Below are positions 7,604 to 62,329 of a stretch of 64,000 bases of DNA, one piece after another. The DNA is from Narcine bancroftii (taxonomy: Eukaryota), in assembly GCF_036971445.1 (NCBI RefSeq), contig NC_091480.1, positions 11,098,001-11,162,000 of the forward strand. Reading direction: 5' to 3'. Made by a program: the position numbers and the translations under genes. Position 1 is the first letter of the stretch. Each line of letters begins with the position of its first letter. The notes under the pieces were generated by a model. It did not search any database, was not told the DNA's origin, and was given only the letters and a program-made list of their open reading frames with translations.

Positions 7604-7730
7604 AAATTTATCACTTGAAACAAGGTAAAGGTTCTATTATTGTCACATTTAGAATATAACATACATGAAATTCTTGTCTACTGTAAGGCAGACAGTATTG
7701 CCACTTTGTCCAGCACCCCTCACAGAAATT

Positions 7731-7804
7731 AGGCCCCCAACAAGGGACGAACTCACAATCCCTGGTGTACAAGACCAGTGTTCTAACCACTGAGCTATGG
7801 AGCC
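7731..7804 (-). pseudogene. tRNA-Thr(TGT)-derived sequence, head of a SINE-like chimera (7624-7804)
   Basis: Reverse complement GGCTCCATAGCTCAGTGGTTAGAACACTGGTCTTGTACACCAGGGATTGTGAGTTCGTCCCTTGTTGGGGGCCT matches vertebrate tRNA-Thr-TGT, with T-arm mismatches. It is fused to a LINE-type tail. Confidence 0.85.
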
Positions 7805-9949
7805 TCTAATTTTTTAAAAATAATTATTTATTTGGAGTCAGTTTTGTTTACATTTTGTTCTTTTGTAATACTTAACTTTGCTTGAGCACAACTTATGCTG
7901 CCGATAACTGCCTGGCCTGCTAGAAAAAAAGAATCTCTGGATGATATGTGATATGCCTGCACACGGACAATAAATTTCAACTTGAACTTGAACCCATTAC
8001 TACTTGTTTAGTAAATTGTGATTGCTGTCAGGGAGTTATGCAGAAGAACATGGGTATACTATGCTTGTTAACCTAGCTAACTCCATGCTGTCCAGAATTT
8101 GCGTTTGCTGCTGTTAATGTAACTGGATGGTACAATGGGTTGAGATGATTTTTACAGCCACAATAAACTTGATAGCTTATGTTTTATTTTTACTTATTCC
8201 AAAAGGTCTTTGAGAAAGACTGAAAATTCCTTTTGCATTTTTTTTTGGACAATAGTGGTCCTTAAACCGTGAACTTAAAAGTTTTTGCAATCTTTTGTGA
8301 AGGCAAAGCGGCACATTTCTTTTTGATGACTGAGGTATTAAATTTAAGACAAAGGAAGTAGTGGGAATCGAAAATGAGAGGAGTGGGGTTCCCTTCTGTT
8401 CTCATAAAGGAAATATGATAAACCTTAGAACTGTGGTTCGCTTTTGAACAAATCTGTAGAGAAAAAACTAAAAAGATTTTGCAGGTCATGTGAAGGGGGA
8501 AGGGTTGTTTTGTTTTGGTAAAGAAAAAAGGTATATGTATATATTTAATATTGGAGAATTTTCCTTTGTATATTTATGGAAAAAAGAAAAAGAAAATATT
8601 TAAAAGAAGATTTTGCAGGGCAGGTACGTCTGTGGATGAAAATGCTGGAAACATTTAGTGATCATTAGAATGAGATCATCGTCATATGCATAAGTCAGAT
8701 GTACGTGTGCATCAAAATTCTTACTTGCTGTAGCCAAAGAGGTATGTAGAGTTCTCCAGCATAATAAATTATTTCAGTATGGAAAAAATAAATAGGCCCA
8801 GTTGCAGTTAGTGCAAAGTAAAAAGTATCAATTTGATAATGTAGACAGATCTTTTTGGTGCCTGCAAGTCACATAGTAGTGACAGAAAATGAAAGAGAGT
8901 TAACATTTCAGGCTGAAGACACTTTAACTAATAATTCTGTATGTTTTTTTTTTCCCCACAAATGCAGCGTTTCCTGTACATTCTGCTTTTCAGCCTCAAC
9001 AGTTTCTTTTTTCATTTTCATCTCTGTTTATTACATGGATGGTTTTGAGAGCTTGTTTAAGTGCACGCTGAGTTTTCCATTTCCTATATTGCAACAATGG
9101 CAACATTCCTAATTTACTTCAGTGCCTGCAGAGGATACTGGATGATGACGGTTCCAAATAAATGCAAATCCCTTTTAGTTGTTGAAAATAATCAGGGATC
9201 TTTAGGTTTTTTTGTATCAACCATGGTCTTAAATTGTCTGATAATTAGATTCTGGAAAATAAAAATCCTCCCTATATCTTCAGACATGGTTTGCATGCAA
9301 ATGTAAGGCATAAACAGCCTTGAGAACTGGAGGAGGAAAAAAACATTGTACAGCTCAAGTTGTTTGCCTTTCCCCCCCCCCTCCTTCTTCGGTCTATCTC
9401 TGATTCCATCTCCGGGAATGGAAGACATTCCCAGGCAGACCTACCTGCCATGACGTCCAGCTCCACATTTCACAGCTTCTACACTAGAACGTAGAACAGG
9501 ACAACAGGAACGTGACTTTGATTGACTACGCCTACGCTGGACATGATGCCACGTTATATCCCTACTGCTTCCACATGCACCACACCCCTCTGTGGCCTGT
9601 ATGATCCATCTCCTTCCACCACTATTCCTGACAGCCCACTCCGGGGAACTATCCCTCTCTGCAAAACAATGCTTGCCCTGTTCATGTCCTTTAACTTACC
9701 TGCCTCCTCCACCACTTTATACATGCATCCTCGAGTATTTGACATTTGTACCCTGGAAAATCCCATGTCCATATTTTCGTATTTTAACTACTCCCATCCA
9801 CTCACTGAAAAGGTAATCACGTTTACAGTTTATCCCCATGGTCACCCTGGTTTCACTCATCAGAGACCACCCTCCACCCTTCCTTGCCCACTTTGCCACT
9901 AAACAAGCTGCTTTTGTTACCTTCCCAGTTCAGATGTAGGATTTTTAAT

Positions 9950-10988: not shown

Positions 10989-11429
10989 TACATGGTTCTT
11001 TTATCAATCCCTGTGGTGATGAAAGGTCATTGTCACACATCATCTGAAAGTTTACGACATTTCTAGTTTCACAGATTCTCTCTGACGTGCAGAGTATTTT
11101 CAGTTTTTACTTAAGATTTGCCACACGCCCACTTGTTTCCGATCATTTACTTTTCTCGTTGATTGAACCATCCATGATTTTGAAGACCTGTATCAAATCT
11201 CATTTCAATGGTCTCCTGTGGGAAATCGCCACCATTTAGTTTAAATGTTATTGTACATTATTCCTTTCTAAAATAATCGTCATGCCTCACATTAAATCCA
11301 TTTGGTTGCTTATCATCTAAGTTCTCCAATCTATGACAGAGTGATAATTGGGCTGATGGGTGCTGAGGTGAACACCAATCAAATGAAAAGTAGGAGGAAG
11401 CCCCTCAGGCCTTCACGCCTTGATGAAGA

Positions 11430-12570
11430 TTCGAGATTCTTTTATTGTGATGTTATAAAATAGAAAATGTAATATGACACAAAACTTAGTTTACCGCAAG
11501 GCAGACAAAGATTCACCATCAGCAGATATTGCCCGGTGTTCCTTACAATTAGAAAAGAGAAGCAAAAGAGTCACTTAATGTTGTGGATTCACCTCCAGCA
11601 GTCCGCAGTCTTCAGTCCAGACCATCAGCGGCCTGAGCGCTAGATCCAAGCTTCCGACATGATCAAAAAGCCTTCAGCGCCTTCGGCACCCCCTCACATC
11701 TCGGTTCCGATATGTGGCACACCTTCAGCCAGTCACCAGCAGCCCACAGCCTGCATGGGTTTGTCGCATTGAGTCATCTACAGCCTAGCACCCGTGCTTT
11801 CTTCAGCCTCAGAGCCCCTCGCTGGTGTGCTACCATGGTCACCGCCCCGTGGGTCTGCTTCTCCTTCTCAGATGGAGGGTGGTCTCCCTGTTTTCTGGTG
11901 CCCTGCACCAGTCCTCTGCTTCCCCGGAGTCTGCAACCCCTTGAGCTGCTGCCAGATATAGGCCTCGCCAGAGTCATTGTCATGAACAGGCCACTAAATT
12001 CATTGTTTTGTGGCAGCATCCCTGTGCAAATATTTAAATAAACCACCTGGCAAAATAAAGAACATGGCCAACTAAGGCAGTGGGTATGGTTCATTGTTCA
12101 TTCTGGAATCTGATGGCAGAGGGAATAAAGCTTACCTTGTGTTGCTGAGTGCTCGTCTTCAGGTTCCTGCACCTTTTCCTGATGATAGAAGAGTGAAGAG
12201 GGCGTGACCTGTGCGATGGAGGGATTTTGAAGATAGAGACTGTGTCCTTAAGACACTGCCTCTTGTAGAGGTCCTCAATGAAGTGATGTCTGGTGCCTGT
12301 GATGTCGCAGGCCAGGTTAACAACCCTCTGGGTTTTTTTTTCCCTTTTCCTGAGCCTCTGCGATGCAACCAGACCGAATACTCTCCACGATACACCTGTA
12401 AAAGTTTGAGAGACTTCAGTGACATACCAGATCTTGGTCCCAGACCCCACGGTTGCAGGATTTTAAAATAAACCACCGTGAGCCATTTAAAGTGGAAATT
12501 GGACCCCGCAGGGGAATGCAGTGTCTCTGCTCCCTGCAGGTCCGCACCAGCAGTGGCAGTGCCATTGCAG
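11430..12570 (-). mobile_element. Non-coding retroelement with a Rex-type tail, interrupted by a Rex1 fragment (~11975-12427)
   Basis: Flanks of the insert join into a sequence colinear with 44060-44385. The insert encodes TQRVVNLACDITG..DLYKRQCLK..SFIPSAIRF (Rex1). Confidence 0.6.
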
Positions 12571-12734
12571 AAGCTCTGGCAATTCCGCCCTGAAGGGAGT
12601 AGCAACTATGAAAGATAAAGAAGGTTCTGCACTACACTGTTTAACCCATGTTAGAGCTGCCTGTGGCCTTTGTGGACCAGCCAGAGAATTGTCTGTATAG
12701 ACACCATAAGGGTAGGAACTCACATCTGTATTTA

Positions 12735-13190
12735 TTCTTTTAACAATATTTTCATTGATATTTTACAATAAAAAGTTGAACAATAAAATGTGCTACAAGA
12801 TCAGAAAAAAGTTACATTAATAATTACAAGTTCCAAAGCACACTCAAGGTGATAAAATGGTACATAACAAAAGAGAAACACAAAAAAAAAGAGAAAAAAT
12901 ACATTTCTAAACCCCTTCCCCAAGCAAGGCTGATGATTAACGTTCACAAATCCAAGTTGCACAGTCCTAGAGGGGGACCACACAATGCCAAGATTCCAGA
13001 TTAAAACTACATTTTAGGATTATGGTCGTAGTCCAAGAACAAGCCCCATAACATTTGAAATTTACTAACCGCATATCTAATTTTTTCCCCAAATTTAAAC
13101 AAGACATAATATCCCTTCCCCATTGTACGTGTGTAGGTGGAGAATTATCTTTCCACTTAATCAAAATTGCATGTCTGGCCGGTGGACCAG
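12735..13190 (-). mobile_element. L1-clade LINE 3' fragment (copy at ~28224-28679)
   Basis: Encodes ARHAILIKWKDNSPPTHVQWGRDIMSCLNL, a fish-type L1 ORF2 C-terminus, followed by an A-rich 3' end on the minus strand. Confidence 0.75.
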
Positions 13191-14623: not shown

Positions 14624-14823
14624 NNNNNNNNNNNNNNNNNNNNNNNNNNNNNNNNNNNNNNNNNNNNNNNNNNNNNNNNNNNNNNNNNNNNNNNNNNNNN
14701 NNNNNNNNNNNNNNNNNNNNNNNNNNNNNNNNNNNNNNNNNNNNNNNNNNNNNNNNNNNNNNNNNNNNNNNNNNNNNNNNNNNNNNNNNNNNNNNNNNNN
14801 NNNNNNNNNNNNNNNNNNNNNNN
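14624..14823. other. Assembly gap (200 N)
   Basis: Run of exactly 200 N, a fixed-size scaffolding gap. Confidence 0.99.
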
Positions 14824-18556: not shown

Positions 18557-19210
18557 AAGATAAGCGTATACAGAGCCGTTGTCATACCCACACTCCTGTT
18601 CGGCTCCGAATCATGGGTCCTCTACCGGCACCACCTACGGCTCCTAGAACGCTTCCACCAGCGTTGTCTCCGCTCCATCCTCAACATCCATTGGAGCGCT
18701 TACACCCCTAACGTCGAAGTACTCGAGATGGCAGAGGTCGACAGCATCGAGTCCACGCTGCTGAAGATCCAGCTGCGCTGGATGGGTCACGTCTCCAGAA
18801 TGGAGGACCATCGCCTTCCCAAGATCGTGTTATATGGCGAGCTCTCCACTGGCCACCGTGACAGAGGTGCACCAAAGAAAAGGTACAAGGACTGCCTAAA
18901 GAAATCTCTTGGTGCCTGCCACATTGACCACCGCCAGTGGGCTGATAACGCCTCAAACCGTGCATCTTGGCGCCTCACAGTTTGGCGGGCAGCAACCTCC
19001 TTTGAAGAAGACCGCAGAGCCCACCTCACTGACAAAAGGTAAAGGAGGAAAAACCCAACACCCAACCCCAACCAACCAATTTTCCCTTGCAACCGCTGCA
19101 ATCGTGTCTGCCTGTCCCGCATCGGACTTGCCAGCCACAAACGAGCCTGCAGCTGACGTGGACTTTTTACCCCCTCCATAAATCTTCGTCCGCGAAGCCA
19201 AGCCAAAGAA
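18557..19210 (+). mobile_element. RTE-clade LINE 3' fragment (duplicate of 3079-3732)
   Basis: Identical ORF translation to the first copy. Confidence 0.95.
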
Positions 19211-22200: not shown

Positions 22201-23216
22201 CGGTTTACATTTGGTATTCTTGTATTTGCATTCTGTCTATCAGAAATACCTCGACCAACTTTCTACTAAAGTACATAAACAATTTATTGACTCAAGCTGG
22301 TGCACAGAGTGGAAACCAAACTCAATTACCAGGGTCACTTTGATATCAATTATCTGGCTCCATCACGGCCTGGTATGGGAGCACCAATACGTCTGAGTGG
22401 AAAGTCCTGCAAAATGTAGTATCACAGGCAAAATTCTTCCCACCATCGAGAAAGTAAACATGGAACATTGTTGTCAGAGAGGAGAGCAATCGTTAAGGAC
22501 CCACACCACCCAGGGTATAATCTCATTTTGCTGCTGCCATCAGGAAATATGTAAATATACCACATGACTCATACCACCAGGGTTAAGAACAGATGTCACT
22601 AGGGTGGCCATTCCAAAAGGAGGTATGGTCATAGATTACAAAATATATATATATTTATACACACACACACACACACATACAGTGTGTTTGCATTTGTTTT
22701 TCCAATATGGTTTAAATTTTATTAATAAAATATGATTTTTGCTGCATTACATTTGTGGCGAGTATACACTTAAGGCTCAAGGACACAGCATGACTGCACT
22801 TATTAATAAAGCCTATGAGCTCTACTTTGGTCGTAAAATTGGAAAGTGAGACAAACACTGGGCTCACATGCTGTTGTGCAACATGTGTCGTTAACGTAAG
22901 AGCTTGGCTCAGAGGTACATAATGTGATTAAAATGCAAAATTCAATAAAAGTTCATTTAACGTTTCTCCCACTTCCTGCGTTATACTGCAAATATGAAAT
23001 TATTTTTGTGTTCAGCTTGAAGCTGTCTTATCATCACTCCTCATTGTTTTTCAGGAAGCAAAGCATTTGAAAAAATCTGTTGTCCACTGAAATTTATCAC
23101 TTGAAACAAGGTAAAGGTTCTATTATTGTCACATTTAGAATATAACATACATGAAATTCTTGTCTACTGTAAGGCAGACAGTATTGCCACTTTGTCCAGC
23201 ACCCCTCACAGAAATT

Positions 23217-23290
23217 AGGCCCCCAACAAGGGACGAACTCACAATCCCTGGTGTACAAGACCAGTGTTCTAACCACTGAGCTATGGAGCC
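23217..23290 (-). pseudogene. tRNA-Thr(TGT)-derived sequence (duplicate of 7731-7804)
   Basis: Same sequence as 7731-7804. Confidence 0.85.
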
Positions 23291-26200
23291 TCTAATTTTT
23301 TAAAAATAATTATTTATTTGGAGTCAGTTTTGTTTACATTTTGTTCTTTTGTAATACTTAACTTTGCTTGAGCACAACTTATGCTGCCGATAACTGCCTG
23401 GCCTGCTAGAAAAAAAGAATCTCTGGATGATATGTGATATGCCTGCACACGGACAATAAATTTCAACTTGAACTTGAACCCATTACTACTTGTTTAGTAA
23501 ATTGTGATTGCTGTCAGGGAGTTATGCAGAAGAACATGGGTATACTATGCTTGTTAACCTAGCTAACTCCATGCTGTCCAGAATTTGCGTTTGCTGCTGT
23601 TAATGTAACTGGATGGTACAATGGGTTGAGATGATTTTTACAGCCACAATAAACTTGATAGCTTATGTTTTATTTTTACTTATTCCAAAAGGTCTTTGAG
23701 AAAGACTGAAAATTCCTTTTGCATTTTTTTTTGGACAATAGTGGTCCTTAAACCGTGAACTTAAAAGTTTTTGCAATCTTTTGTGAAGGCAAAGCGGCAC
23801 ATTTCTTTTTGATGACTGAGGTATTAAATTTAAGACAAAGGAAGTAGTGGGAATCGAAAATGAGAGGAGTGGGGTTCCCTTCTGTTCTCATAAAGGAAAT
23901 ATGATAAACCTTAGAACTGTGGTTCGCTTTTGAACAAATCTGTAGAGAAAAAACTAAAAAGATTTTGCAGGTCATGTGAAGGGGGAAGGGTTGTTTTGTT
24001 TTGGTAAAGAAAAAAGGTATATGTATATATTTAATATTGGAGAATTTTCCTTTGTATATTTATGGAAAAAAGAAAAAGAAAATATTTAAAAGAAGATTTT
24101 GCAGGGCAGGTACGTCTGTGGATGAAAATGCTGGAAACATTTAGTGATCATTAGAATGAGATCATCGTCATATGCATAAGTCAGATGTACGTGTGCATCA
24201 AAATTCTTACTTGCTGTAGCCAAAGAGGTATGTAGAGTTCTCCAGCATAATAAATTATTTCAGTATGGAAAAAATAAATAGGCCCAGTTGCAGTTAGTGC
24301 AAAGTAAAAAGTATCAATTTGATAATGTAGACAGATCTTTTTGGTGCCTGCAAGTCACATAGTAGTGACAGAAAATGAAAGAGAGTTAACATTTCAGGCT
24401 GAAGACACTTTAACTAATAATTCTGTATGTTTTTTTTTTCCCCACAAATGCAGCGTTTCCTGTACATTCTGCTTTTCAGCCTCAACAGTTTCTTTTTTCA
24501 TTTTCATCTCTGTTTATTACATGGATGGTTTTGAGAGCTTGTTTAAGTGCACGCTGAGTTTTCCATTTCCTATATTGCAACAATGGCAACATTCCTAATT
24601 TACTTCAGTGCCTGCAGAGGATACTGGATGATGACGGTTCCAAATAAATGCAAATCCCTTTTAGTTGTTGAAAATAATCAGGGATCTTTAGGTTTTTTTG
24701 TATCAACCATGGTCTTAAATTGTCTGATAATTAGATTCTGGAAAATAAAAATCCTCCCTATATCTTCAGACATGGTTTGCATGCAAATGTAAGGCATAAA
24801 CAGCCTTGAGAACTGGAGGAGGAAAAAAACATTGTACAGCTCAAGTTGTTTGCCTTTCCCCCCCCCCCCCTCCTTCTTCGGTCTATCTCTGATTCCATCT
24901 CCGGGAATGGAAGACATTCCCAGGCAGACCTACCTGCCATGACGTCCAGCTCCACATTTCACAGCTTCTACACTAGAACGTAGAACAGGACAACAGGAAC
25001 GTGACTTTGATTGACTACGCCTACGCTGGACATGATGCCACGTTATATCCCTACTGCTTCCACATGCACCACACCCCTCTGTGGCCTGTATGATCCATCT
25101 CCTTCCACCACGATTCCTGACAGCCCACTCCGGGGAACTATCCCTCTCTGCAAAACAATGCTTGCCCTGTTCATGTCCTTTAACTTACCTGCCTCCTCCA
25201 CCACTTTATACATGCATCCTCGAGTATTTGACATTTGTACCCTGGAAAATCCCATGTCCATATTTTCGTATTTTAACTACTCCCATCCACTCACTGAAAA
25301 GGTAATCACGTTTACAGTTTATCCCCATGGTCACCCTGGTTTCACTCATCAGAGACCACCCTCCACCCTTCCTTGCCCACTTTGCCACTAAACAAGCTGC
25401 TTTTGTTACCTTCCCAGTTCAGATGTAGGATTTTTAATGTTTTAAATTTAGAGACAGCAATAATAACAGACCCTTCCGACCCATGAGCCTGCGGCACCCA
25501 AATAAACCAGCGTGGCCAATTCACCCCATATGCCTTTGGAACATGGGAGGAAACTGGAGCACTTGAACGAAGCCCTCAAGGACATGGGGAGAATTTACAA
25601 ACTCCTTACGGGCAGCGGTGGATTCAAACCTGGGTTGCCGGTTCTATAATAGCATTGTGCTAACCCCTCTTTGACACAAATAGTTAGCTTCTTTTTCCAG
25701 CATTTTCAGGTTCCGCCGTGCATCCTCCAAGCTTCGGATCTGGCAAATTCTCCTCCAAAAAAAAAAATCGATCCTACTTCACCGCTAACAAAATTTCCAT
25801 CAGCAGTCCTTCTCGTAATTGGCCCACTCTAAATTACCTCTTACTATTGTAGACCAGTTTTGAAATATTGACACTTTTATTGTTTGAAGTCTTCAGATAC
25901 TTATACAGTTCAGTAAGATATCTACGAATCTGTTCTTAAACATAAGAATTTCCACCTTCTCACATACCTAATCTAAGCTATCAATTTAGTTTGTCTTCAC
26001 TGAAAAGTCTCCAAATCCTGGAAGCTCTTGTTATAATACTGCAATCAGGTCCTCCACGCAGAGTGGGACCAGCTCCCTGTTATTTCAAAATCATCTCTTG
26101 AAATTTGTGTTCTATTTCTCTGGCTAGGAATCCTCCAAATCCTATTTATTTGCTTTAATCATATTATCCATTGGACTTCATTTAACCCATTCACCAATGA

Positions 26201-29200
26201 CTATAAAATTACCCATCTGTGTCTTATATTGCAGTCATTCAATTGTCGGCTACTTGCTGTCTTTGAAGGTGTTTTCCTCCAGTTATAATAGTAAAACCCC
26301 TGTTATCCAGAATTCAAGCAAATGGACAAAAAAAATTAAGGAAAATAAATAGGAAAAAAATGTGGAAGTTTAAAACCGGCACGCCTCTCGCACAACAGGC
26401 AATCTCAAGCAACTAGAAAATTCATTTATCTGGCATCTATCAAACCCCACAGGTGCTGGATACCAGGAACTTTACTGTACATGGTTCTTTTATCAATCCC
26501 TGTGGTGATGAAAGGTCATTGTCACACATCATCTGAAAGTTTACGACATTTCTAGTTTCACAGATTCTCTCTGACGTGCAGAGTATTTTCAGTTTTTACT
26601 TAAGATTTGCCACACGCCCACTTGTTTCCGATCATTTACTTTTCTCGTTGATTGAACCATCCATGATTTTGAAGACCTGTATCAAATCTCATTTCAATGG
26701 TCTCCTGTGGGAAATCGCCACCATTTAGTTTAAATGTTATTGTACATTATTCCTTTCTAAAATAATCGTCATGCCTCACATTAAATCCATTTGGTTGCTT
26801 ATCATCTAAGTTCTCCAATCTATGACAGAGTGATAATTGGGCTGATGGGTGCTGAGGTGAACACCAATCAAATGAAAAGTAGGAGGAAGCCCCTCAGGCC
26901 TTCACGCCTTGATGAAGATTCGAGATTCTTTTATTGTGATGTTATAAAATAGAAAATGTAATATGACACAAAACTTAGTTTACCGCAAGGCAGACAAAGA
27001 TTCACCATCAGCAGATATTGCCCGGTGTTCCTTACAATTAGAAAAGAGAAGCAAAAGAGTCACTTAATGTTGTGGATTCACCTCCAGCAGTCCGCAGTCT
27101 TCAGTCCAGACCATCAGCGGCCTGAGCTCTAGATCCAAGCTTCCGACATGATCAAAAAGCCTTCAGCGCCTTCGGCACCCCCTCACATCTCGGTTCCGAT
27201 ATGTGGCACACCTTCAGCCAGTCACCAGCAGCCCACAGCCTGCATGGGTTTGTCGCATTGAGTCATCTACAGCCTAGCACCCGTGCTTTCTTCAGCCTCA
27301 GAGCCCCTCGCTGGTGTGCTACCATGGTCACCGCCCCGTGGGTCTGCTTCTCCTTCTCAGATGGAGGGTGGTCTCCCTGTTTTCTGGTGCCCTGCACCAG
27401 TCCTCTGCTTCCCCGGAGTCTGCAACCCCTTGAGCTGCTGCCAGATATAGGCCTCGCCAGAGTCATTGTCATGAACAGGCCACTAAATTCATTGTTTTGT
27501 GGCAGCATCCCTGTGCAAATATTTAAATAAACCACCTGGCAAAATAAAGAACATGGCCAACTAAGGCAGTGGGTATGGTTCATTGTTCATTCTGGAATCT
27601 GATGGCAGAGGGAATAAAGCTTACCTTGTGTTGCTGAGTGCTCGTCTTCAGGTTCCTGCACCTTTTCCTGATGATAGAAGAGTGAAGAGGGCGTGACCTG
27701 TGCGATGGAGGGATTTTGAAGATAGAGACTGTGTCCTTAAGACACTGCCTCTTGTAGAGGTCCTCAATGAAGTGATGTCTGGTGCCTGTGATGTCGCAGG
27801 CCAGGTTAACAACCCTCTGGGTTTTTTTTTCCCTTTTCCTGAGCCTCTGCGATGCAACCAGACCGAATACTCTCCACGATACACCTGTAAAAGTTTGAGA
27901 GACTTCAGTGACATACCAGATCTTGGTCCCAGACCCCACGGTTGCAGGATTTTAAAATAAACCACCGTGAGCCATTTAAAGTGGAAATTGGACCCCGCAG
28001 GGGAATGCAGTGTCTCTGCTCCCTGCAGGTCCGCACCAGCAGTGGCAGTGCCATTGCAGAAGCTCTGGCAATTCCGCCCTGAAGGGAGTAGCAACTATGA
28101 AAGATAAAGAAGGTTCTGCACTACACTGTTTAACCCATGTTAGAGCTGCCTGTGGCCTTTGTGGACCAGCCAGAGAATTGTCTGTATAGACACCATAAGG
28201 GTAGGAACTCACATCTGTATTTATTCTTTTAACAATATTTTCATTGATATTTTACAATAAAAAGTTGAACAATAAAATGTGCTACAAGATCAGAAAAAAG
28301 TTACATTAATAATTACAAGTTCCAAAGCACACTCAAGGTGATAAAATGGTACATAACAAAAGAGAAACACAAAAAAAAAGAGAAAAAATACATTTCTAAA
28401 CCCCTTCCCCAAGCAAGGCTGATGATTAACGTTCACAAATCCAAGTTGCACAGTCCTAGAGGGGGACCACACAATGCCAAGATTCCAGATTAAAACTACA
28501 TTTTAGGATTATGGTCGTAGTCCAAGAACAAGCCCCATAACATTTGAAATTTACTAACCGCATATCTAATTTTTTCCCCAAATTTAAACAAGACATAATA
28601 TCCCTTCCCCATTGTACGTGTGTAGGTGGAGAATTATCTTTCCACTTAATCAAAATTGCATGTCTGGCCGGTGGACCAGGGATCCAAAAATAAAGTACAA
28701 GATAAAATGCAGCGTTGGATTGAAGTGAGTAACATGTCATCTTCTCAGAATGTTCCAAAAAGAAAAAGGGGTAAGTTCCAATTTTACAACTGTATTTATA
28801 AGAATAAAGGCAGAAGCTCACATAGCATGTTTGGGGCATAAAGTGGAGCTCAACCATTACAAAAAGAGTTTCTTCCAAAATTACTAAATATTGTAAGGCA
28901 GCACACAGCTGCAAACTGCTTTGCACAAAATATGTGTTCACAACAACTGAGATAAGGGAGAAAAGTAGATTAGAAAAAAAAATGTAAAACTCATGCATTT
29001 CTCAGAACAGTAGGCATTCGTCTCAGATGGATGGTTGCCCTGTTGGTATCAGCTTGCAATAAAGTTTGTTCTGAAGGTAAACGTGTGAGTTCTTCCATCA
29101 ACAAACATATTTTTCCATGTATTGAAATCGTAGCTTCAACTCTGCATTGCTTTCTAACCTTAGCAACCTTTCACCTCTTGCTTATTCCATCTACTTCTGA

Positions 29201-30117
29201 TTTTAAAGCATTCGAACATTCTGTCTCTAAGGCACTTTAAGAAGGGAGTTCCAAAGATTCATAATTCTGGGAGAAAAGTTGTAAGCGGGTGACCTCTTTG
29301 TTTTAAAAATCTTGACCCGTAGCTTTACTTTGTTTCCCAGAGGACGCTTCGTCCCCACATCCACCTTGTGAATGCTGCCTATTTCTGCCCGACAGCCTGA
29401 ACCTAATGGAAGAAATCTCTTTCTTTTTCAGAGGGAACCCACTGGCTCAGCCCCAATGTCCCTGGTTCAATTCTGACTCCGGTGCTGACTGTATCGTTTG
29501 TCCATTCACCCCGGTGATTGCACAGCTTTTCTCCCACATCCCTAAAAAGCACGGTCGATAGGCCAATTGGCCATTGGAAATCTGTCCGAGTGTGTTGGAG
29601 AAGGGGAGAATCTGCGAGGAGATAAGGGGAAGATGGAAAAAATAAAATGGGTTGGGATAAGTTTAGTGCAAAAATGGATGATTGATGATTGGGGCAGATG
29701 GTGTGCCAAGGGCTTGCTTCTGTGTTGTACTTCTCTGTGTCCAGAACTAGCCCTTAACTCAGGCAGAAATCCCATTTTCTGCCACTGTGGCCACTTCTTT
29801 TCTCCACGACACTTCTTTATGTTACAATCCCTTCATGTCTCACCATTTGGTGTCTCTACCATCAGATTGCATCCCATTCCTGAATATCTTCCTTTCCTGA
29901 GGGAAGTTTGCCTTTACTCTACTTTGTGCTTAACTGTATCCACAGTTTACTTTAATCTGTTCCAGTCATGCAGTTGAGTAGTTTATTTATATAGTGCATT
30001 TAACATAACGCACATGGATCCAAAGGACTGAATGTACAATGAAGAATAAGTAGATAGTAACCAATCTAAACCAGTGGTTCTCAACCTTTTTCTTTCTACT
30101 TACATTCCACTTTAAAT

Positions 30118-31370: not shown

Positions 31371-32359
31371 TTCGTTACTGAAGTATTCTCACTGTCTGAA
31401 ATGTATTACGCTCAATGAAATGTGATTACTGATTTGTACAACACAGAAAGAACCTATTTATCCCACTGCACATGCAGTGGAGTAACAGAGAAAATAATTA
31501 TAAAGAGAAAAGAAAGAAGGAATGAATGGATTACCTTCAAGATACAACTCGCGGGGCATTATTCACAGTTTATATTAATGACGTCATGGAAGAGATCCAG
31601 GTCATCGTGTCCATGTTTGCTGTTGATATAAGGCAGGACAGACATAATAATCATGTAAAGGACGTGCACAGATTAACGGAGATAATCCATTTAGAGGTTA
31701 TACAGCATGGAAACAGTCCCTTCAGCTCAACTTGTCCATGCAAATCATGTTGTTCACTTGAGCAAGTGCCATTTGCCTACATTTGGCTTATATCCCTCTT
31801 ATCCACGTTCTATCTCAGTGTTGTCATTTTAGAGGGATTTGAGTTAAATCACACTTAGAGGAAGAGAAGCTGAGAAACACAGAAGCTGAAGATGCTGGAA
31901 TCTTGAGCAAACAACGAGGAATTGGAGGCGAGGAATCCATGCAGGCTGTGGCCTGGTGGTGACTGCGGCTGAGGAATCACACCGGGCTGTGGCCTGCTGG
32001 TGACTGCGGCCGAGGAATCCTGCTGGATTCTGGCTCAAGACGGGCTGATGGTTTGGACTGGACTCTGTGTGGCTGCAAGGGCTGCAGGAGCACTGGAGGC
32101 AAATCCATGGACATGTGACGACGCCAAGGGGGTCTCTCTTTTGCTTCTCTTTCTCTGACTGTAAGAGGCGCTTCAAGCAATCTCTGCCAATGGTGAATCT
32201 GTCTGCCTTAAAACAGATGAAAACAGGTTTTTGTGTAATATCACGCTGTCTTCATTACATGACCATAAGTTGAATCTTGAACTCTGTTGGTCAGACAGCA
32301 ACTATGGGGTCGATAAAGGGCCATGGCCTGAATTGCCAACTGACAATTTCACATTTTTA

Positions 32360-42380: not shown

Positions 42381-44599
42381 ATTCTGTATCATCCCTCAAG
42401 TGTCCCGCCCATGGGGTCCCTTAACAGGTCCTTTTTAATTTCCCCTCAAGGAGACGCACAGCTGGCACAGGAGAAGCAGTGTGACATTTTGAGATGTTTA
42501 TCGGAATGATACACCGAGGAATTCCTGCAACATCCTCTCTGAATCTCACACAAGTCCAATCTTGCATGGAAGGCCACAAAGAGATTTATGGCACAAAAGT
42601 GGTATCAGGTGTTGGGTTATCAGTGGCATTTCAACAAAGCATTCTTACAGATTTTACACAATTTATCCTCATTCATGAGTTTATTATTAAGATCAGAATA
42701 TGTTCAGCATACTGAAAACATCAGTGGATTGAGAAATCAGTAGAACTACAAAGATAATTGAACAAAACCTCTAGATGCGACCTAGGAAAGTTGAATTGGG
42801 TTCCGTCAGGGTTGACCAGGTCAGACCCTTTCTAACTGCTGCAATAACTGGGGCACTCACTGGGCAATTTGCCCAGTTAACCCGATTTTACATGGCAGTT
42901 TGTACATCCTGCCTGGGTTTAACTTCCCAAAATGCATTACTTCTCACTGGCCTGAGTTGACTTCCTTTTGGCTGCTTTCCCAATATTCAAGGTATTTTAT
43001 GTTTATTTCAGAGCTTGGACCAACTTCAAGATGAGTAAAATTTGCAAGGCTGGAAAAATTCCTTTCGAGGCAATTTTCGAAGCTGTGGGGAAAATTCCTT
43101 TTGTAAGATTGTGGTTTCTATATTATTAATATACTGGGAATTAGGTTGCAAGTTAACCTAACAGGATTAAAATTAGAAAGGCCCTTTTTGCCAACACATG
43201 TATAGATCAATGCCTGCTAGGAAGGTTTTGTGGCACAGCACTTTGTGTTGTCTCTCACAACATCAGGGACCCGTGCTTGTACGTTCCCTCCTTCAACCTA
43301 GAGGTGCGTGTTTTCAAGCTGGTGTATCTTCTGCCTGAAAGGAGTTGGGAAGAAGAGAGTGTTACCGGGGGAGGTAGAATTTAATTTAAGTTAGAGACAC
43401 AACAGCACGGTAACAGGCCTTTCCGGCCCATGACCCCGTGCCACTCAAATACACCCACGTCCAATTAACCCACTCACCCTGGATGCCTTTAGAATATGGG
43501 GGGGGGGATTGGTGGAATTGGAGCACCAGTGGAAACCCACACAGTCACGGGGAGAATACGTAAACTCCCCACAAACAGCGGCACCGGTTTGCAGTCCCTG
43601 AATAACAGCATGCAAACCGTGCCACCCCAAAAGGAACAAAGAGCAGTTAAAAGAGACAAAATAAAAGAGTGCTAGAGGCTGGGCATCTCCCCTCAACACT
43701 TGCAGCTCAAAAAAGTGTCCCAGTCCGCAACATTTCTCTCCAATGGATGGTTCCCTGATCTATCGAGTCCCTCCAGCCCTATGATTATTTGCTGAAGAAA
43801 ACTAATGGCACTCACGAGTATGTCACGGAAATCAATTTTGAGACAGTCAAGAAGGATTTCAAACATATGAGCACCTTTGAAACAAACCATAGTAGAGATT
43901 AAAGAACCAAGTCTGTCCGGGTCGGTAGCAGAACTTCGAGCACCATCAAGCTAAGACTGCCACACCTCAGGCCTGCCCAGTCCTGTTAATGCTGCTGATC
44001 CATGCCTGTGTGTATCCAGAGCCCCTCACTGGTCCACTGCCATGGTCAGCATGTTTGGGGTTGTCTCCTCTAATGGGGGAGGGAGGGTGTTCTCTTTTTC
44101 TGGTGCCCTAGTCCACTGCTCCCCCAGAGACTGCAATCCCTTGTGTCTGCTGCCAAAAATAAGCGCCACCATCTTGGGCCCAGACCCTATGGTCACATGG
44201 TTTTAAATAAAACACAGTCAGCTCCTTTAAGAGGCTATTTAGAGCCTGTATGGAACCATCAGCAGATGGACTGGGTGGTTGAACTCTTCGGGATAGCACT
44301 GCATCTCTGCTCCCCACTCTCCCCCGGACCAGACCAGTGGCCGCGCTGCCCTTAAAGCAGCTTGGGCAGTGCCACCATTTTTTTGGTGACTAGACTTCTA
44401 TTTCAATTTGTTACGTATCAATTTGCCTCCACATTTATGTTGTTCCAACTGCCTGTGTTGTAAAGTAATTCTTTCCTTGGTCTGTTCCTTTGTTTTCTCA
44501 ACTTGTCCCTCTTTACAACCTAAAACCCATTGGTTCCCACTCTTTCCCTGGTCCGATGAAGGTCTGTTGTCCTGAAACATTGCATCTGCTACTTAGAAT

Positions 44600-45313: not shown

Positions 45314-45948
45314 TTCTCTTTCTTCTCTTTGGCTTGGCTTCGTGGACGAAGACTTATGGAGGGGTAATGTCCACGTCAGCTGCAGGCTCGTTTGTGGCTG
45401 ACAAGTCCGATGCGGGACCGGCAGACACGGTTGCAGCGGTTGCAGGGGAAAATTGGTCAGTTGGGTTTGGGTGTTGGGTTTTTCCTCCTTTGTCTTTTGT
45501 CAGTGAGGTGGGCTCTGCGGTCTTCTTCAAAGGAGGTTGCTGCCCGCCGAACTGTGAGGCGCCAAGATGCACGGTTTGAGGCGATATCAGCCCACTGGCA
45601 GTGGTCAATGTGGCAGGCACCAAGAGATTTCTTTAGGCAGTCCTTGTACCTCTTCTTTGGTACACCTCTGTCACTGTTATATTGGGATCTTGGGAAGGCG
45701 ATGGTCCTCCATTCTGGAGACGTGACCTACCCACCGCAGTTGGATCTTCAGCAGCGTGGATTCGATGCTGTCGGCCTCTGCCATCTCGAGTACTTCGATG
45801 TTCCGGATGGAGCGGAGACAACGCTGGTGGAAGCGTTCTAGGAGCCGTAGGTGATGCCGGTAGAGGACCCATGATTCGGAGCTGAACAGGAGTGTGGGTA
45901 TGACAATGGCTCTGTATATGCTAATCTTTGTGAGGTTTTTCAGTTGGT
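45314..45948 (-). mobile_element. RTE-clade LINE 3' fragment with internal deletions
   Basis: Reverse complement of ~49620-50300 with two gaps. Encodes NLTKISIYRAIVIPTLLFSSESW. Confidence 0.93.
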
Positions 45949-48640: not shown

Positions 48641-49223
48641 ATTCAATTACCTGGGTGTTTTTTTTTAAATGCTGGGCAGATCATGAGCTTAATAAGAAAA
48701 GGTTCAAAGTGTAGAAACAAAACTTCTTAGAAAGGTTTCAATGTGAAGAAAAATTAAGCGGAATGGTTTGCTGGAAGTGAAAATGGCTGTCATGCAAAGT
48801 TAACATCTAAAGTCCTCAGGCCGGGTGGCCCAAAGTCTGACGATTTCATTCCTCCCCCCCCCCACCCCCACGGATGCTGCTCAATCTGCTGAATTTCTCC
48901 TGCAGGTTGTTTGTTTGCATGCAAAGTTATGGAATAGCCACATAGACGTCAGTCTACCTGCTGGGTGCCACATGACCTGCTGAGTTTCCCCAGCACACCT
49001 GTGGAGCACACATCCATAGGTGCACAAGCCTAGTCAAAGACCAACTGAGGGAATGTATTCTCACAGCTTTGGGGTGGGACGAGGTGGCTGAGAATCGAAA
49101 AGTACTGAGTAGCATATGAGGAGAAGAGATCGCAGGTCCACAGATCTCCTTGTAACTATTCACACCTTCCTGGCTGATAAACAAATTGTTTGGTAAAGTA
49201 ATTGCTTTTACTGTTAGACTATA

Positions 49224-50240
49224 ATGTATGGCAGTCTCTTCAATCTGAGGCGCCTGCAAGCTCACACCAAGACACAAGAGAAACTTGTCCGTGAACTACT
49301 CTTTGCAGATGATGCCGCTTTAGTTGCCCATTCAGAGCCAGCTCTTCAGCGCTTGACGTCCTGCTTTGCGGAAACTGCCAAAATGTTTGGCCTGGAAGTC
49401 AGCCTGAAGAAAACTGAGGTCCTCCATCAGCCAGCTCCCCACCATGACTACCAGCCCCCCCACATCTCCATCGGGCACACAAAACTCAAAACGGTCAACC
49501 AGTTTACCTATCTCGGCTGCACCATTTCATCAGATGCAAGGATCGACAATGAGATAGACAACAGACTCGCCAAGGCAAATAGCGCCTTTGGAAGACTACA
49601 CAAAAGAGTCTGGAAAAACAACCAACTGAAAAACCTCACAAAGATAAGCGTATACAGAGCCGTTGTCATACCCACACTCCTGTTCGGCTCCGAATCATGG
49701 GTCCTCTACCGGCACCACCTACGGCTCCTAGAACGCTTCCACCAGCGTTGTCTCCGCTCCATCCTCAACATCCATTGGAGCGCTCACACCCCTAACGTCG
49801 AGGTACTCGAGATGGCAGAGGTCGACAGCATCGAGTCCACGCTGCTGAAGATCCAGCTGCGCTGGATGGGTCACGTCTCCAGAATGGAGGACCATCGCCT
49901 TCCCAAGATCGTATTATATGGCGAGCTCTCCACTGGCCACCGTGACAGAGGTGCACCAAAGAAAAGGTACAAGGACTGCCTAAAGAAATCTCTTGGTGCC
50001 TGCCACATTGACCACCGCCAGTGGGCTGATAACGCCTCAAACCGTGCATCTTGGCGCCTCACAGTTTGGCGGGCAGCAGCCTCCTTTGAAGAAGACCGCA
50101 GAGCCCACCTCACTGACAAAAGGCAAAGGAGGAAAAACCCAACACCCAACCCCAACCAACCAATTTTCCCTTGCAACCGCTGCAATCGTGTCTGCCTGTC
50201 CCGCATCGGACTGGTCAGCCACAAACAAGCCTGCAGCTGA
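49224..50240 (+). CDS. RTE LINE ORF, C-terminal 338 aa (RT catalytic LFADD, thumb region, Cys/His tail); 5'-truncated
   Basis: Uninterrupted frame: LLFADDAAL, FTYLG, LRWMGHV, CNRCNRVCLSRIGLVSHKQAC. The ATG comes from the insertion flank, so this is not a host gene. Confidence 0.85.
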   Translation: MYGSLFNLRRLQAHTKTQEKLVRELLFADDAALVAHSEPALQRLTSCFAETAKMFGLEVSLKKTEVLHQPAPHHDYQPPHISIGHTKLKTVNQFTYLGCTISSDARIDNEIDNRLAKANSAFGRLHKRVWKNNQLKNLTKISVYRAVVIPTLLFGSESWVLYRHHLRLLERFHQRCLRSILNIHWSAHTPNVEVLEMAEVDSIESTLLKIQLRWMGHVSRMEDHRLPKIVLYGELSTGHRDRGAPKKRYKDCLKKSLGACHIDHRQWADNASNRASWRLTVWRAAASFEEDRRAHLTDKRQRRKNPTPNPNQPIFPCNRCNRVCLSRIGLVSHKQACS

Positions 50241-50300
50241 CGTGGACTTTTTTACCCCCTCCATAAATCTTCGTCCGCGAAGCCAAGCCAAAGACAAAGA
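49228..50300 (+). mobile_element. RTE-clade LINE (AviRTE-like), young 5'-truncated copy
   Basis: Open RT frame, short 3' UTR ending cttcgtccgcgaagccaagcc, and an (aaag)-like tail. Confidence 0.95.
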
Positions 50301-50744
50301 TTAATCTATAATAAAAAATATTTTAGTGTTGCTATTCTTTGACTTTTGGGCAAAGTTTTTTTTCCCCCCCTCACTGTAGCTCATAATCATCAATTTATAG
50401 ACAAGAATTCACAACATTACAGAGTGGTTTTCCAAGCAATTCAGTCCCTGCAGATTGCCTAATGTAATCCCTATCTGTCCTTGATAACTAATTTATTATA
50501 TTTCCTACAGACTACATCAGGAATGCAATGAAATTTTAAAAAAGCTAAAGCATCTTCTCCCTTTTGCTCTCCTGTCCATCTTCCCCTTTCTGTGAACAAA
50601 ACTCCCCTTCATGTTTCCCTGCTCAGGTCAGGTTCCACTCATTCGTCACCACTGAATTACCTTGTGTCTTGGTCTGAGAAAGCCCCTTACTAATTTTGTA
50701 CTCTGCTCTATCTTTACAATCCTCACAGTGTCCTCCTGAATGTC

Positions 50745-51100: not shown

Positions 51101-52229
51101 TTTCAGTTTTATTTTTTCCCCTTCTGGATACTGACCCTGTCTCTCTCTCCTCTCTCTCTCCCTCAACTGCAGCGACCTACAAAATGTTTCCAGCAGTTTT
51201 TATATTTAATGCTGATTGTCATATCTGAGCCAGATTTCAATGGAAAGTATTGCAAATATGATCATCTTTAAATGCCGTGCAATGAAGGCATAACAACAAC
51301 CTGAGTCCCGACAATTGTTAGAGTCATGAATGCCCCAGCTGGTTTATTTCTCACAGTTTTTGTTCAGATCTTTGACACTCTTTTACATACCAAGCATGCA
51401 TTTTACTTAGCAGATAGAGCAAACATTTTTATTAAATGGTTTTTTTTTCACTATGAAACCTTAGTTTTGTTGTAAACTTAGCTATGTTGTTGGCAGTATG
51501 CCCCACAAATAAAAGGTGGTCATGCTGTAATTACACCTTCCTGCCAGTAGTGGCAGTGCAGCACCTTAGTCAAGTTCTTGGCATGCAGATCTCAGCCCCT
51601 TGGTGTTTGCAATGGGGAAATGTTCCCACTTCAGACAACATTACTTACTTCCATACTTCTAATTGGTCGATAATTATAAATATCACATATCAAAGTATTG
51701 AGCTGGCTGTTTCTGGGAGTTTTGCAACAGCTCAGCCAATGTTCAGTCGCGTAAGCGATAGTAAATCCCAAGTTTCTCAAGAAACATGGAATTGAGGTGT
51801 GGTGCCCAATCCTGCTGGGATTCTCCAGCATTTCAGATTCCTTGCTAGTTCTCACCTGTTGTAAGATCAGAGACACCATAGATTTCACCATAGATTTTGC
51901 AAAACGAATTTCACTTATGTTTTTTAAATTGTTTTCTTGCTGCTCTCAATTTTCTCATACTATTGAAAGAATTTTTTACATTAATTTATAATAAACTCCT
52001 GTTTATCTGTATTTATGCATCTTGAATTCTCATGCAACAGGAAAGATTTCTCAGAATATTAAGTAATTTCATATTTTTTTCAAAAAAAAACAAGTATCTA
52101 TAGCCCACTAGCTAAATTGCATTGTTGAGTGATTCCAATTTAAGTAGCAGACTTGCGTAAAAGTCAAAACTCAAAGTTCAGATTTATTATCAGAGTGCAA
52201 ACATGATATGATCTACAACCCTGAGATTC

Positions 52230-52727
52230 TTTTTCCTGCGTAATCCATGCATAGTATACCCAAGGATGAGTGTTTATAGAAACATAAAATTATGAAAGGA
52301 GTGGATAAGATAGAAACAGGGAGCTTGATTGCATTGGAAGGTGATACCAGATAATTTTTCCTGCGTAATCCATGCATAGTATACCCAAGGATGAGTGTTT
52401 ATAGAAACATAAAATTATGAAAGGAGTGGATAAGATAGAAACAGGGAGCTTGACTGCATTGGAAGGTGACACCAGATAATTTTTCCTGCGTAATCCATGC
52501 ATAGTATTCCCAAGGATGAGTGTTTATAGAAACATAAAATTATGAAAGGAGTGGATAAGATAGAAACAGGGAGCTTGATTGCATTGGAAGGTGATACCAG
52601 ATAATTTTTCCTGCGTAATCCATGCATAGTATACCCAAGGATGAGTGTTTATAGAAACATAAAATTATGAAAGGAGTGGATAAGATAGAAACAGGGAGCT
52701 TGATTGCATTGGAAGGTGATACCAGAT
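52230..52727. repeat. Tandem array, 125-bp unit x ~4
   Basis: Units start at 52230, 52355, 52480 and 52605 and are nearly identical. Confidence 0.97.
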
Positions 52728-56866: not shown

Positions 56867-57312
56867 ATCCAGCTGCGCTGGATGGGTCACGTCTCCAGAA
56901 TGGAGGACCATCGCCTTCCCAAGATCGTGTTATATGGCGAGCTCTCCACTGGCCACCGTGACAGAGGTGCACCAAAGAAAAGGTACAAGGACTGCCTAAA
57001 GAAATCTCTTGGTGCCTGCCACATTGACCACCGCCAGTGGGCTGATATCGCCTCAAACCGTGCATCTTGGCGCCTCACAGTTTGGCGGGCAGCAACCTCC
57101 TTTGAAGAAGACCGCAGAGCCCACCTCACTGACAAAAGGCAAAGGAGGAAAAACCCAACACCCAACCCCAACCAACCAATTTTCCCCTGCAACCTCTGCA
57201 ACCGTGTCTGCCTGTCCCGCATCGGACTTGTCAGCCACAAACGAGCCTGCAGCTGACGTGGACTTTTATCCCCTCCATAAATCTTCGTCCGCGAAGCCAA
57301 GCCAAAGAAAGA
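56867..57312 (+). mobile_element. RTE-clade LINE 3' fragment inserted in a Rex1 remnant
   Basis: Near-identical to ~49850-50300. Possible ATTAAT TSD (56863-56868 / 57313-57318). Confidence 0.95.
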
Positions 57313-58681
57313 ATTAATGGACATGGGGGACACGGAACTTCCGTTGGAAGTGAAAGCATCAGTGTGCTCTCTGAGCAGATCACTGGAAGTGTTTATTCCC
57401 AAGAACGATGCTATCTACAGTCTCCACTTTTATGGAGAAAGGGGGCTTTAAAATAATCCCTGCAAAATTATGATATTCTCAAACTCGAATGTTTTCTTCC
57501 TCTGGAGAATAATGACAGAAGCCTCATGCATTTGTCCACCACACATTATGCATTTATGATAAATAGCATCTATAAGCTTGTCAAGAAAGAAAATTTGACA
57601 TGCAGCTGGTCTGTATTGGCTTTCCACTAAGCAATGCCTTCATTTAAACATTCTGAACCCTTTCTCCACCCTCTATCTGTAACATCTCCCAGCCCTACAA
57701 TCCTGCATGTTATCTGGGCTCTTCCTCGACCCACCATTTCTGCGTCCTGTTTAAAATTAATGTATAAGGGGGATATCTTCCTGAAAAGTTTCTCTTTCTG
57801 CAAAATGTTCAAAGTCCTAAAGCATTTTGGGGTCACCTGCACTTGGAGAAAGACACAGTATTCATTCTGGAGAATATATCTTTGTAAATTGGAGACATGA
57901 GTTGCAAATCAAGATATGACTGGTACAACTATTTGGTTACTGAAATTGTAAACTTTTGAATTATGCAGTAGACAAACTTGCGGGAGAAACTCAGCTGGTC
58001 ACACAGCATCCATAGGAAGTAACAGGCAAAGTTTCGAGAATGTGTAAAATCAGGCAGAATCTTGATTCCACCTTCTTAATTTCTCCACATTTCTTTCTCT
58101 CTTCAGAACACACTTTACATCACCTCTCTTATTATCTCCTTGTACAATTGTTCATTTTTGCTAGATATCCCTCCTATGAAGAACATCATCAATCAAGGCT
58201 ACTTCATAACTCAAGATTATTGTTGTTGAGTAAAATACAAAGGTCTGTGATTGAAGTAAAAAAAACCAATGGTGGAGAAACTCAGCAGGTCAAACAGTGT
58301 CCTCGATACAGCAAAGCTAAAGATACTGAACCAACGTTTCAGGCTTAAGCAAAATATAGGCAGGCACCCAAACCAAAATACTGTGTGGAGAGGGGGATTT
58401 TAAGGAACAGGGACACACAAGAAATACAGACGGAGGCATCTTGAGTAAATAATGAGATTCAATTAGTCAGGCAGGATTCATGTGGAAAAAAAAAAGGACA
58501 GTCAATAATTCAGGGAGGGTCATTTACTGAGACCACGGTAAAAGTCAAAACTTTGTGTTTTTTGATTCTTTGTTAACTTTGTACCTGTCTCTTCAAGAGA
58601 CACTATCTTACCATTAGTGTCTCTGATGTAATATGTAGTAATATCCAGCCAGCCACTGTCCGCTTTCTCACTGTTCTACAG

Positions 58682-60811: not shown

Positions 60812-60831
60812 TTTCCACTTACATATCACCT

Positions 60832-61273
60832 TCTTTCTTTGGCTTGGCTTCGCGGACGAATATTTAAGGAGGGGTAATGTCCACGTCAGCTGCAGGCTCG
60901 TTTGTGGCTGACAAGTCCAATGCGGGACAGGCAGACACGGTTGCAGTGGTTGCAAGGGAAAATTGGTCGGTTGGGGTTGGGTGTTGGGTTTTTCCTCCTT
61001 TGTCTTTTGTCAGTGAGGTGGGCTCTGCGGTCTTCTTCAAAGGAGGTTGCTGCCCGCCGAACTGTGAGGCGCCAAGATGCACGGTTTGAGGCGATATCAG
61101 CCCACTGGCAGTGGTCAATATGGCAGGCACCAAGAGATTTCTTTAGGCAGTCCTTGTACCTCTTCTTTGGTGGCCAGTGGAGAGCTCGCCATATAACACG
61201 ATCTTGGGAAGGCGATGGTCCTCCATTCTGGAGATGTGACCTACCCAGCGCAGTTTGATCTTCAGCAGCGTGG
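60832..61273 (-). mobile_element. RTE-clade LINE 3' fragment
   Basis: Reverse complement of the RTE 3' region, with a small deletion. Confidence 0.93.
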
Positions 61274-61929
61274 CACCTATGGCGTCCTATATTATAAGTT
61301 CTCTGTGGTTAGTAAGGGATTACTTAAGGTGTTATGTGAGTGGGAAAGAAAGATTTACACCCTTACAAACCGTAGATATATTTCCCTTGGTTGTGAATAC
61401 ATTCAGCAGTTGTACAAGGTTGAGAATTCCATAAGTTCATGATCCCACGAAAGAAGAAATTCCTCCTCTTCTCGACGTTGTGGGCTTATTCTCTTTACCA
61501 AAACTTTTGCATTGATATAACGCCCAACGATTACAAGCCAGACAGAAGTGCCAAGAAGTCCTGACAATTTATAAGATTATTAATAGGCTTTCACCCACAG
61601 ATATGAGAAAAAAAACTGTTAAATCAATAAGATTGTCATAAATTTTTGAAAATAGCTTCAGATTCAATTTTGGGTTATCTGGAATTATTGATGTAAACTT
61701 GTTTCATGAAAAACCAATTTCAAATTGCCAGTCAGATAATTCTTTAGAGATACCTGATGGGACTATATCTGGTCTGGTTTTCTTTGTCCAAGGAAGGTTG
61801 TACTTGGGATAAACTGGTCAAGATTGGTAAAGGCTCCATTAATGTCATGTAATACTACATGAAATTCTTTAACTTTCATCTAACGTAAGGCAGATAGAGA
61901 GTCGCCCCTTTGTCCAGCGCCCATCGCAG

Positions 61930-62028
61930 AAACCTACAGCACCTGGTGTTCCTCGGTGGTCTCCCCTCCAAGTGCTGACCAGTCCTGGGGCTGCTTAGCT
62001 TCTGAGATCAGACAATCCCAGGCTATTT
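61930..62028 (-). pseudogene. 5S rRNA-derived sequence, head of a SINE-like chimera (61826-62028)
   Basis: cctacagcacctggtgttcctcggtggtctcccctccaagtgctgaccagtcc..ctgcttagcttctgagatcagac is antisense to the 3' ~100 nt of 5S rRNA, including the A/IE/C internal promoter region. The 5' end is missing or diverged. Confidence 0.88.
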
Positions 62029-62329
62029 GGTGCAGTGACCTTGACCTGAGGTGAATGTGGAAAACTGTTTACATCAGTGATCAAGTTCTCTTCACCGTAA
62101 TGTTATGAAAATCATCTTAAAGCACTTATTTACTTCAATTTAATCCAAATTGATTGCTGGGATGAATGAATGGTCCCATAAGGAAAGGAAAGCAATCTGG
62201 CCCTGTGCTCCACTGAGTTGAGAAGACAGAGGTGATAAACAGTAGATAGAAGCATAGGTGGGTTGTCTAGAACCAGGCCGATAATCTCAAAAAAGCTAAA
62301 CAGGAAAGTTTCTGGGATTGAGAGTGGTG

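Follow-up and report, generated by a model that had tools for sequence, protein, structure and literature searches.

SINEs with a 5S rRNA head and SINEs with a tRNA head have already been published on one and the same tail. In the springhare, the families Ped-1 and Ped-2, one with a 5S head and the other with a tRNA head, are described as sharing a part derived from the LINE BovB, and the salmonid families OS-SINE1, SlmI, and HpaI, again 5S- and tRNA-headed, are all paired with the LINE RSg-1, OS-SINE1 and SlmI forming such a pair on one tail (PMC3747384). In the coelacanth (CoeSINE4 and CoeSINE5) and in a moth (HaSE1 and HaSE3), a tRNA head in one family and a 5S head in the other are followed by a similar or shared 3' sequence (PMC5786205). 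A 5S head containing an internal type 1 promoter region, with a retroposon tail behind it, is also the build of the SINE3 class, whose vertebrate families use CR1-clade LINEs, and the addition of a new head by template switching has been argued (PMC4494074, PMC7245038). The chondrichthyan SINEs HE1, SacSINE1, CmiSINE, and SINE2-1_CM, whose host group is likely the same as here, have tRNA heads and LINE-type tails as well; in their published descriptions all have tRNA heads and CR1-type partners, most have V, Deu, or CORE domains, and none is 5S-headed.

We analyzed a stretch of 64,000 nucleotides (the window) that holds a 5S-headed and a tRNA-Thr-headed copy, and we are nearly certain that these represent a real pair of dispersed, coreless SINE families on one tail. 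The pair differs from the described systems in several respects. Ped-1 and Ped-2 have an RTE partner and a bipartite body of 5' and 3' UTR, and the coelacanth and moth tails are likewise RTE-derived and bipartite, with a central domain in HaSE1 (PMC5786205), whereas the present tail is a single contiguous 3' end without an RTE-type ending or long target-site duplications; the coelacanth and moth pairs are set apart here by their descriptions and not by sequence. OS-SINE1 is reported to have a Deu domain and HpaI to have a CORE domain, while in the present families the head is followed by the tail with no body in between. Vertebrate SINE3 families use CR1-clade LINEs, whereas the terminal motif of the present tails was not seen at CR1 ends. 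Since head swaps are known from other animals, the pair is likely a new example of a known architecture rather than a new kind. An earlier note on this DNA, made from the sequence alone, therefore overstated the novelty of joining 5S and tRNA heads to one tail (PMC3747384, PMC5786205), and the published pairs include 5S heads on non-CR1 tails. We found no description of these two families in the literature covered, a scope outside which most subscription journals and supplements fall; judged from published descriptions, and not by sequence against Repbase, Dfam, or SINEBase, they are probably uncatalogued. Three features are less ordinary: the non-coding donor of the tail (element X, below), the likely 5S-to-tRNA direction of the swap, and the possible Rex1 partner.

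The two tails in the window (Table 1) can be aligned end to end (61826-61932 against 7624-7728) with 72% identity over 115 columns (E 1e-10), and the heads diverge at the same breakpoint: mapped through the family consensuses, the junction TTT has its first T at 61932 in the 5S copy and at 7728 in the tRNA copy, which is the same tail position. Both observations had been made in the earlier note and stand. The end given there for the 5S copy falls about 8 bp short of the true extent (61826-62036), and the note's tail length of ~105 bp was an underestimate, as the family tail is about 125-128 bp and both window copies carry internal deletions. ARAGORN and Rfam agree on a tRNA-Thr(TGT) at 7732-7804 on the minus strand. 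The 5S rRNA match (Rfam RF00001, 61931-62037, minus strand) scores 26.7 bits, below the 38-bit gathering score, and the 5S-like head was confirmed by plain alignment to the genome's own 5S gene (L123). Compared with their family consensuses, the 5S copy is identical at 192/211 positions and the tRNA copy at 166/183.

Table 1. Positions of the SINE copies, element X, and associated features in the window.
Feature	Position	Strand	Basis
5S rRNA-derived head (box A, IE, box C region; ~11 bp lost near 5' end)	61933..62036	-	Rfam below gathering score, alignment to 5S gene L123, consensus mapping
Shared tail of 5S-headed copy, from junction TTT to ACCTTT-type repeat end; 18-bp internal deletion	61826..61932	-	alignments, consensus mapping
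Tail hairpin 1 region of 5S-headed copy (8-bp stem and 4-nt loop in consensus; decayed here)	61877..61896	-	predicted folds of both SINE-tail consensuses and X
tRNA-Thr(TGT)-derived head with short trailer remnant, tRNA-headed copy	7729..7805	-	ARAGORN, Rfam, consensus
Shared tail of tRNA-headed copy; internal deletions, G hairpin state typical of 5S family	7622..7728	-	alignments, consensus mapping
Duplicate of tRNA-headed copy, 100% identical	23106..23290	-	inside ~15.3-kb duplication, 99.7% identical
X copy, interrupted by LINE fragment; approximate 5' boundary; repeated 15.5 kb along the window	11426..12560	-	tail-profile match
3' fragment of RT-LINE family inserted in X	11975..12430	-	terminal motif at family 3' end; copy itself without Pfam match
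Further X copies	31926..32292; 44003..44322	+; -	X loci elsewhere: L135-L162, L284-L363

The copy at 23106-23290 was considered as an independent insertion and rejected: it is identical to the 7.6-kb copy because both lie in the ~15.3-kb duplication, and it was left out of the copy counts. This duplication (window 1-14623 against 15479-30112), whose unit begins ~654 bp before the window, adjoins a 200-N scaffold gap at 14624-14823. It is likely a false duplication, produced where the ends of contigs overlap, or else a tandem copy of very recent origin.

The window is 11098001-11162000 of contig C24 in an assembly of 3.33 Gb. The host is a vertebrate and presumably a cartilaginous fish, probably a ray, to judge by its 5S variant and repeat content, by a Pristis pectinata protein (at 46%) as the one named match of a LINE fragment among five hits, and by the highest Rex1 coverage being reported for rays (PMC13343379). 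Searches of this assembly with the window tails, in which the best 40 of 1,327 and the best 40 of 609 candidates were scored, revealed either head at one tail position on many contigs and in unrelated flanks among the best-scoring loci fetched. A second search used the 27-base tail end, so that copies were not chosen by head. It gave 240 exact matches for both families together and none for the reversed control. The 71 copies (70 loci on contigs C1, C5, and C8) at the top of this list comprised 26 with a 5S head, 20 with a tRNA-Thr head, and 25 without a scorable head. By eye, the headless copies are cut within the tail or at the junction, and in five of them part of a head persists, short or interrupted. 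No third type of head was seen by eye in the 110 nt upstream of these 71 copies, nor in 20 copies selected for a G in the hairpin, and no LINE sequence was seen upstream of the tail in the 71. Consensuses were built from all headed copies pooled (69 5S and 40 tRNA), setting aside 24 headless copies that scored well. They measure 243 bp for the 5S-headed and 204 bp for the tRNA-Thr(TGT)-headed SINE, with a shared tail of ~125 bp. The spacing at the junction is exact in 56/69 5S copies and 36/40 tRNA copies; it is off by 1-2 bases in four and two, and the junction is deleted in nine and two, respectively. The junction is thus fixed, and the proposal of two multi-copy coreless families, one with a type 1 Pol III head (5S) and the other with a type 2 head (tRNA), was borne out. 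The tail as a 5S spacer or tRNA-gene flank was rejected, since the real genes viewed, at 5 of the 12 5S loci and at three tRNA-Thr genes, are all followed by unrelated T-rich terminators. Target-site duplications, also proposed for checking, were not found at 8 bp or longer in any of 104 copies; at 7 bp or longer they were present in 5/104, compared with 2.1% in shuffled pairs. At six loci (L025, L027, L034, L173, L174, and L195), a second SINE copy lies within 1-2 kb of another, possibly reflecting local clustering beyond the average of ~1 per 600 kb.

At the positions that we take to be boxes A, B, and C, box A matches the gene in both heads, box C of the 5S head has T84G, and box B of the tRNA head has A58T. 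A run of at least four T is absent from both consensuses, so the terminators of the heads have been lost. Pol III transcription driven by the head is likely for both families. SINE copies were found inside longer contigs of two presumed RNA runs, and such contigs cannot show a Pol III transcript. In a second organism, contigs span the 5S-tail junction, and one contig holds both flanks of the window 5S copy; its match breaks off at 61772 and resumes at 62036, where the 5' end of the element lies. In place of the 263 letters skipped it has 89 others, and thus does not show a clean empty site. These contigs suggest that the 5S-headed family is common to the second organism and the window insertion is not.

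SINEBase defines a SINE by four criteria (PMC3531059), with which we compared both families. They are short (243 and 204 bp, where <1 kb is asked), interspersed on many contigs in unrelated flanks, and non-tandem. They are repeated, with 240 exact 27-mer matches and heads on 46/71 head-blind copies (26:20), and the exact-match count combined with the measured divergence gave an estimate of 5,600-6,800 copies (~6,000) for both families. In 60 x 10 kb sampled without regard to position there was one SINE copy, which extrapolates to ~5,500 with a very wide interval, and 969 kb of loci fetched for other reasons, this sample included, still held only that one. Where at least 60% identity to tRNA, 5S, or 7SL RNA over at least 60 nt is asked, the 5S head is identical to gene L123 at 102/116 positions and the tRNA head to tRNA-Thr gene L236 with its trailer at 75/77. 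Where extra sequence and common substitutions are asked to tell a SINE from an RNA pseudogene, the families have the 125-bp tail together with 14 (5S) and 1-2 (tRNA) common substitutions. The 14 differences of the 5S head, found relative to the top-scoring 5S array only, are common to most copies: position 84 is G in 56/62 copies and the gene's T in none. Position 58 of the tRNA head is T in 35/38. Because these common substitutions are absent from the real genes, the copies descend from master elements and are not separate pseudogenes. The 5S rDNA array on contig C15 (227.40-227.66 Mb, L121-L132) is irregularly spaced and has many variants among neighboring units. A CORE, Deu, or V central domain is absent from both consensuses; the head directly abuts the X-homologous tail, which leaves no room for one. 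Non-CpG divergence in the head-blind set is 8.8% for the 5S family (n = 26) and 8.3% for the tRNA family (n = 20; p 0.53), and thus both families are old and of similar age.

A proposed match of the tail to the 3' end of an autonomous LINE was not found in the copies and loci searched (below). Its nearest relative is a non-coding retroposon of ~850 bp, here called X, which was discovered through tail-profile matches that included the window copy at 11.4-12.6 kb. X is older than the SINEs. Its 5' start is fixed, its copies are often 5'-truncated, and it ends in a short terminal repeat, by which at least three subfamilies differ; 26 of 30 copies picked by their 5' end reach the 3' end. Copies diverge from the consensus by 16-18% (23 copies chosen by 5' end), and those of subfamily X2 by 11-13%, a value biased low since its 30 copies were chosen by score. 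The 600-kb sample contained 11 pieces of about nine elements, which extrapolates to roughly 50,000 copies. The whole SINE tail is colinear with the last ~130 bp of X, the 5S-type tail being identical to X2 at 103/127 positions (81%); the figure for X1 is 97/122. No LINE-protein match was found inside X in 20 copies. X as a SINE headed by a structured RNA was rejected, as Rfam gave nothing at gathering level in four X loci. At L269, L273, and L277, the 4-base loop of hairpin 1 is reverse-complemented within otherwise sense X copies, which suggests hairpin-driven inversion.

To ask which family came first, we compared the two tails. Their consensuses differ at two stable sites, and both track the head: the hairpin base is G in 63/69 5S copies and T in 35/40 tRNA copies, and a one-base difference in length follows head type likewise. 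As a test of this prediction, 20 copies were picked for the G hairpin, and 17 proved 5S-headed, one tRNA-headed, and two headless. At least three tRNA copies have the G state (2/40 pooled, and L381). The X2 consensus has the 5S-family state at both sites, and the tRNA junction bases equal the start of the trailer of L236, one of three real tRNA-Thr(TGT) genes found, a match of only four bases. It is very probable that one family derives from the other. The X2 states and the trailer match point to the order X-type end, 5S SINE, then tRNA head, and on this evidence, which comes down to two tail sites for the polarity, we consider the 5S-to-tRNA direction probable. Counting against it are the tRNA copies with the G state, the equal ages of the families, and the shortness of the trailer match.

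We hypothesize the following history. The 3' end of an X-lineage RNA would have been joined to 5S rRNA at a short T-run, removing the 5S terminator. During later reverse transcription of the 5S SINE, the template would have switched at the same T-run onto pre-tRNA-Thr, whose trailer starts with the four bases now at the junction. Both masters would then have amplified over the same period and decayed, copied likely by a LINE reverse transcriptase recognizing the tail hairpins. A coreless pair on one ~125-bp tail, with a fixed junction and this history, is the best overall explanation, and we give it a probability of about 0.8. The full lineage, from a headless non-coding X dependent on a Rex1-type LINE, through a 5S SINE on its 3' end, to a head swapped for pre-tRNA-Thr at the T-run, is tentative and, taken with all its steps, doubtful.

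The same two families could have arisen in the reverse order, with a tRNA-headed SINE first, its head replaced by 5S, and two derived tail changes gained later by the tRNA master. tRNA heads are the commonest origin of SINEs (PMC7245038), a few tRNA copies keep the ancestral G, and the tRNA junction matches the genomic trailer; yet the 5S tail has both outgroup states and the 5S head is further from its gene (102/116) than the tRNA head (75/77), and we regard this order as rather unlikely. Alternatively, one X-type or LINE 3' end could have captured 5S and tRNA-Thr separately, with the junctions coinciding because microhomology in the T-run, or a pause imposed by structure, fixes their position. 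The T-rich ends of both heads, overlapping the junction TTT, and the similar ages of the families would fit two such births. The tails, however, differ at two sites while both stand ~19% from the nearest X subfamily with the same gaps against X, and by eye the 25 headless copies contain no family of headless elements starting at the junction, making independent births improbable. Least credible of all is that the copies are thousands of separate chimeric pseudogenes, made by LINE template switching onto cellular 5S and tRNA in the manner of U6-L1. The nearly full-length heads and the 25/71 headless copies would be expected, but the 14 (5S) and at least one (tRNA) common substitutions are absent from the genes (with only the top-scoring 5S array compared), the tail state is linked to head type, and there is no excess of parent LINE copies, which the model requires (argument in PMC4494074). 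This explanation is already largely refuted.

To identify the LINE that could have mobilized the pair under the preferred history, we searched for an autonomous element with the SINE tail. None was present among the 71 tail-end copies, the 28+30+30+20 X copies (the first three sets selected by 3' or 5' end), the 16 perfect-hairpin matches, the matches of hairpin variants, or the 30 top PF09004 loci. A terminal motif, written post hoc after these ends had been seen, has 86 occurrences in 1.53 Mb of loci that are by design rich in SINE and X, and none after base shuffling. These occurrences comprise 64 SINE tails, 17 X ends, and five ends of one RT-LINE family (four by tblastn, one by eye); in the same 1.53 Mb, none lies at a CR1, RTE, or L1 end. 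Other copies of this RT-LINE family match RVT_1 and PF09004, and we take the family to be Rex1/Babar-like. RSg-1, the LINE partner of the salmonid SINEs, belongs to the Rex1 clade. The earlier suggestion of a Rex1/Babar-type tail gains from the motif at the five Rex1-like ends and loses from the tail profile, which gave zero matches at 14 ends of that family, and from the missing autonomous LINE. The motif without a full-profile match leaves the Rex1 guess plausible and unproven; judged by these ends, a Rex1-type partner is slightly favored.

The consensus tails and the X end are predicted to fold into two hairpins (z -2.8 for the 5S type, -1.6 for the tRNA type, which is weak, and -3.0 for the X end), while single decayed window copies fold no better than shuffles (z 0.03 for the 5S copy). 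The predicted tail hairpin is likely a LINE-recognition signal. SINEs mobilized by RTE elements have long target-site duplications. The present families lack the RTE signature: the tail matches the 3' end of X in a single contiguous block and is not bipartite, the 104 copies have no target-site duplication of at least 8 bp, and the RTE family in this genome ends differently. A young RTE-type LINE family, 88-98% identical between copies, is present in the window at 3076-3731, 45320-45948, 49218-50305, 56867-57318, and 60831-61273, and one RTE-type copy is inserted into a 5S SINE tail at L168.

The principle of a 5S/tRNA head pair is not new. The two families have nearly identical tails, are similar in age and copy number, and differ in the type of Pol III promoter, so that they form a natural pair for comparing heads against a constant tail. 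They likely also preserve a record of how a head swap ran, both its direction and its junction chemistry. If the proposed lineage is true, a SINE was born from a non-autonomous Pol II-type parasite and not from a LINE, the head changed from 5S to tRNA, opposite to the order in which such swaps are usually told, and non-coding, non-autonomous derivatives are not confined to the four LINE clades for which they have been reported (RTE, Ingi, Vingi, and R2; PMC5786205). Thousands of tRNA-Thr-like and 5S-like copies would also inflate gene counts for tRNA and 5S, as ARAGORN calls the window copies tRNA genes, and presence or absence at orthologous sites could serve as a phylogenetic marker.

Some unrelated repeats were observed along the way. 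The window contains a four-copy tandem repeat at 52224-52727 (unit ~125 bp, 98% identical) and a family of short palindromic repeats (1877-2211, 5206-5531, 61298-61355, and duplicates) with weak matches to Rfam miRNA models, probably a MITE. Among the sampled loci, L080 has a frame, repeated in the locus, that presumably resembles a T-cell receptor variable segment, and L066, from the random sample, has open-frame fragments resembling retrovirus-like gag, pol, and env.
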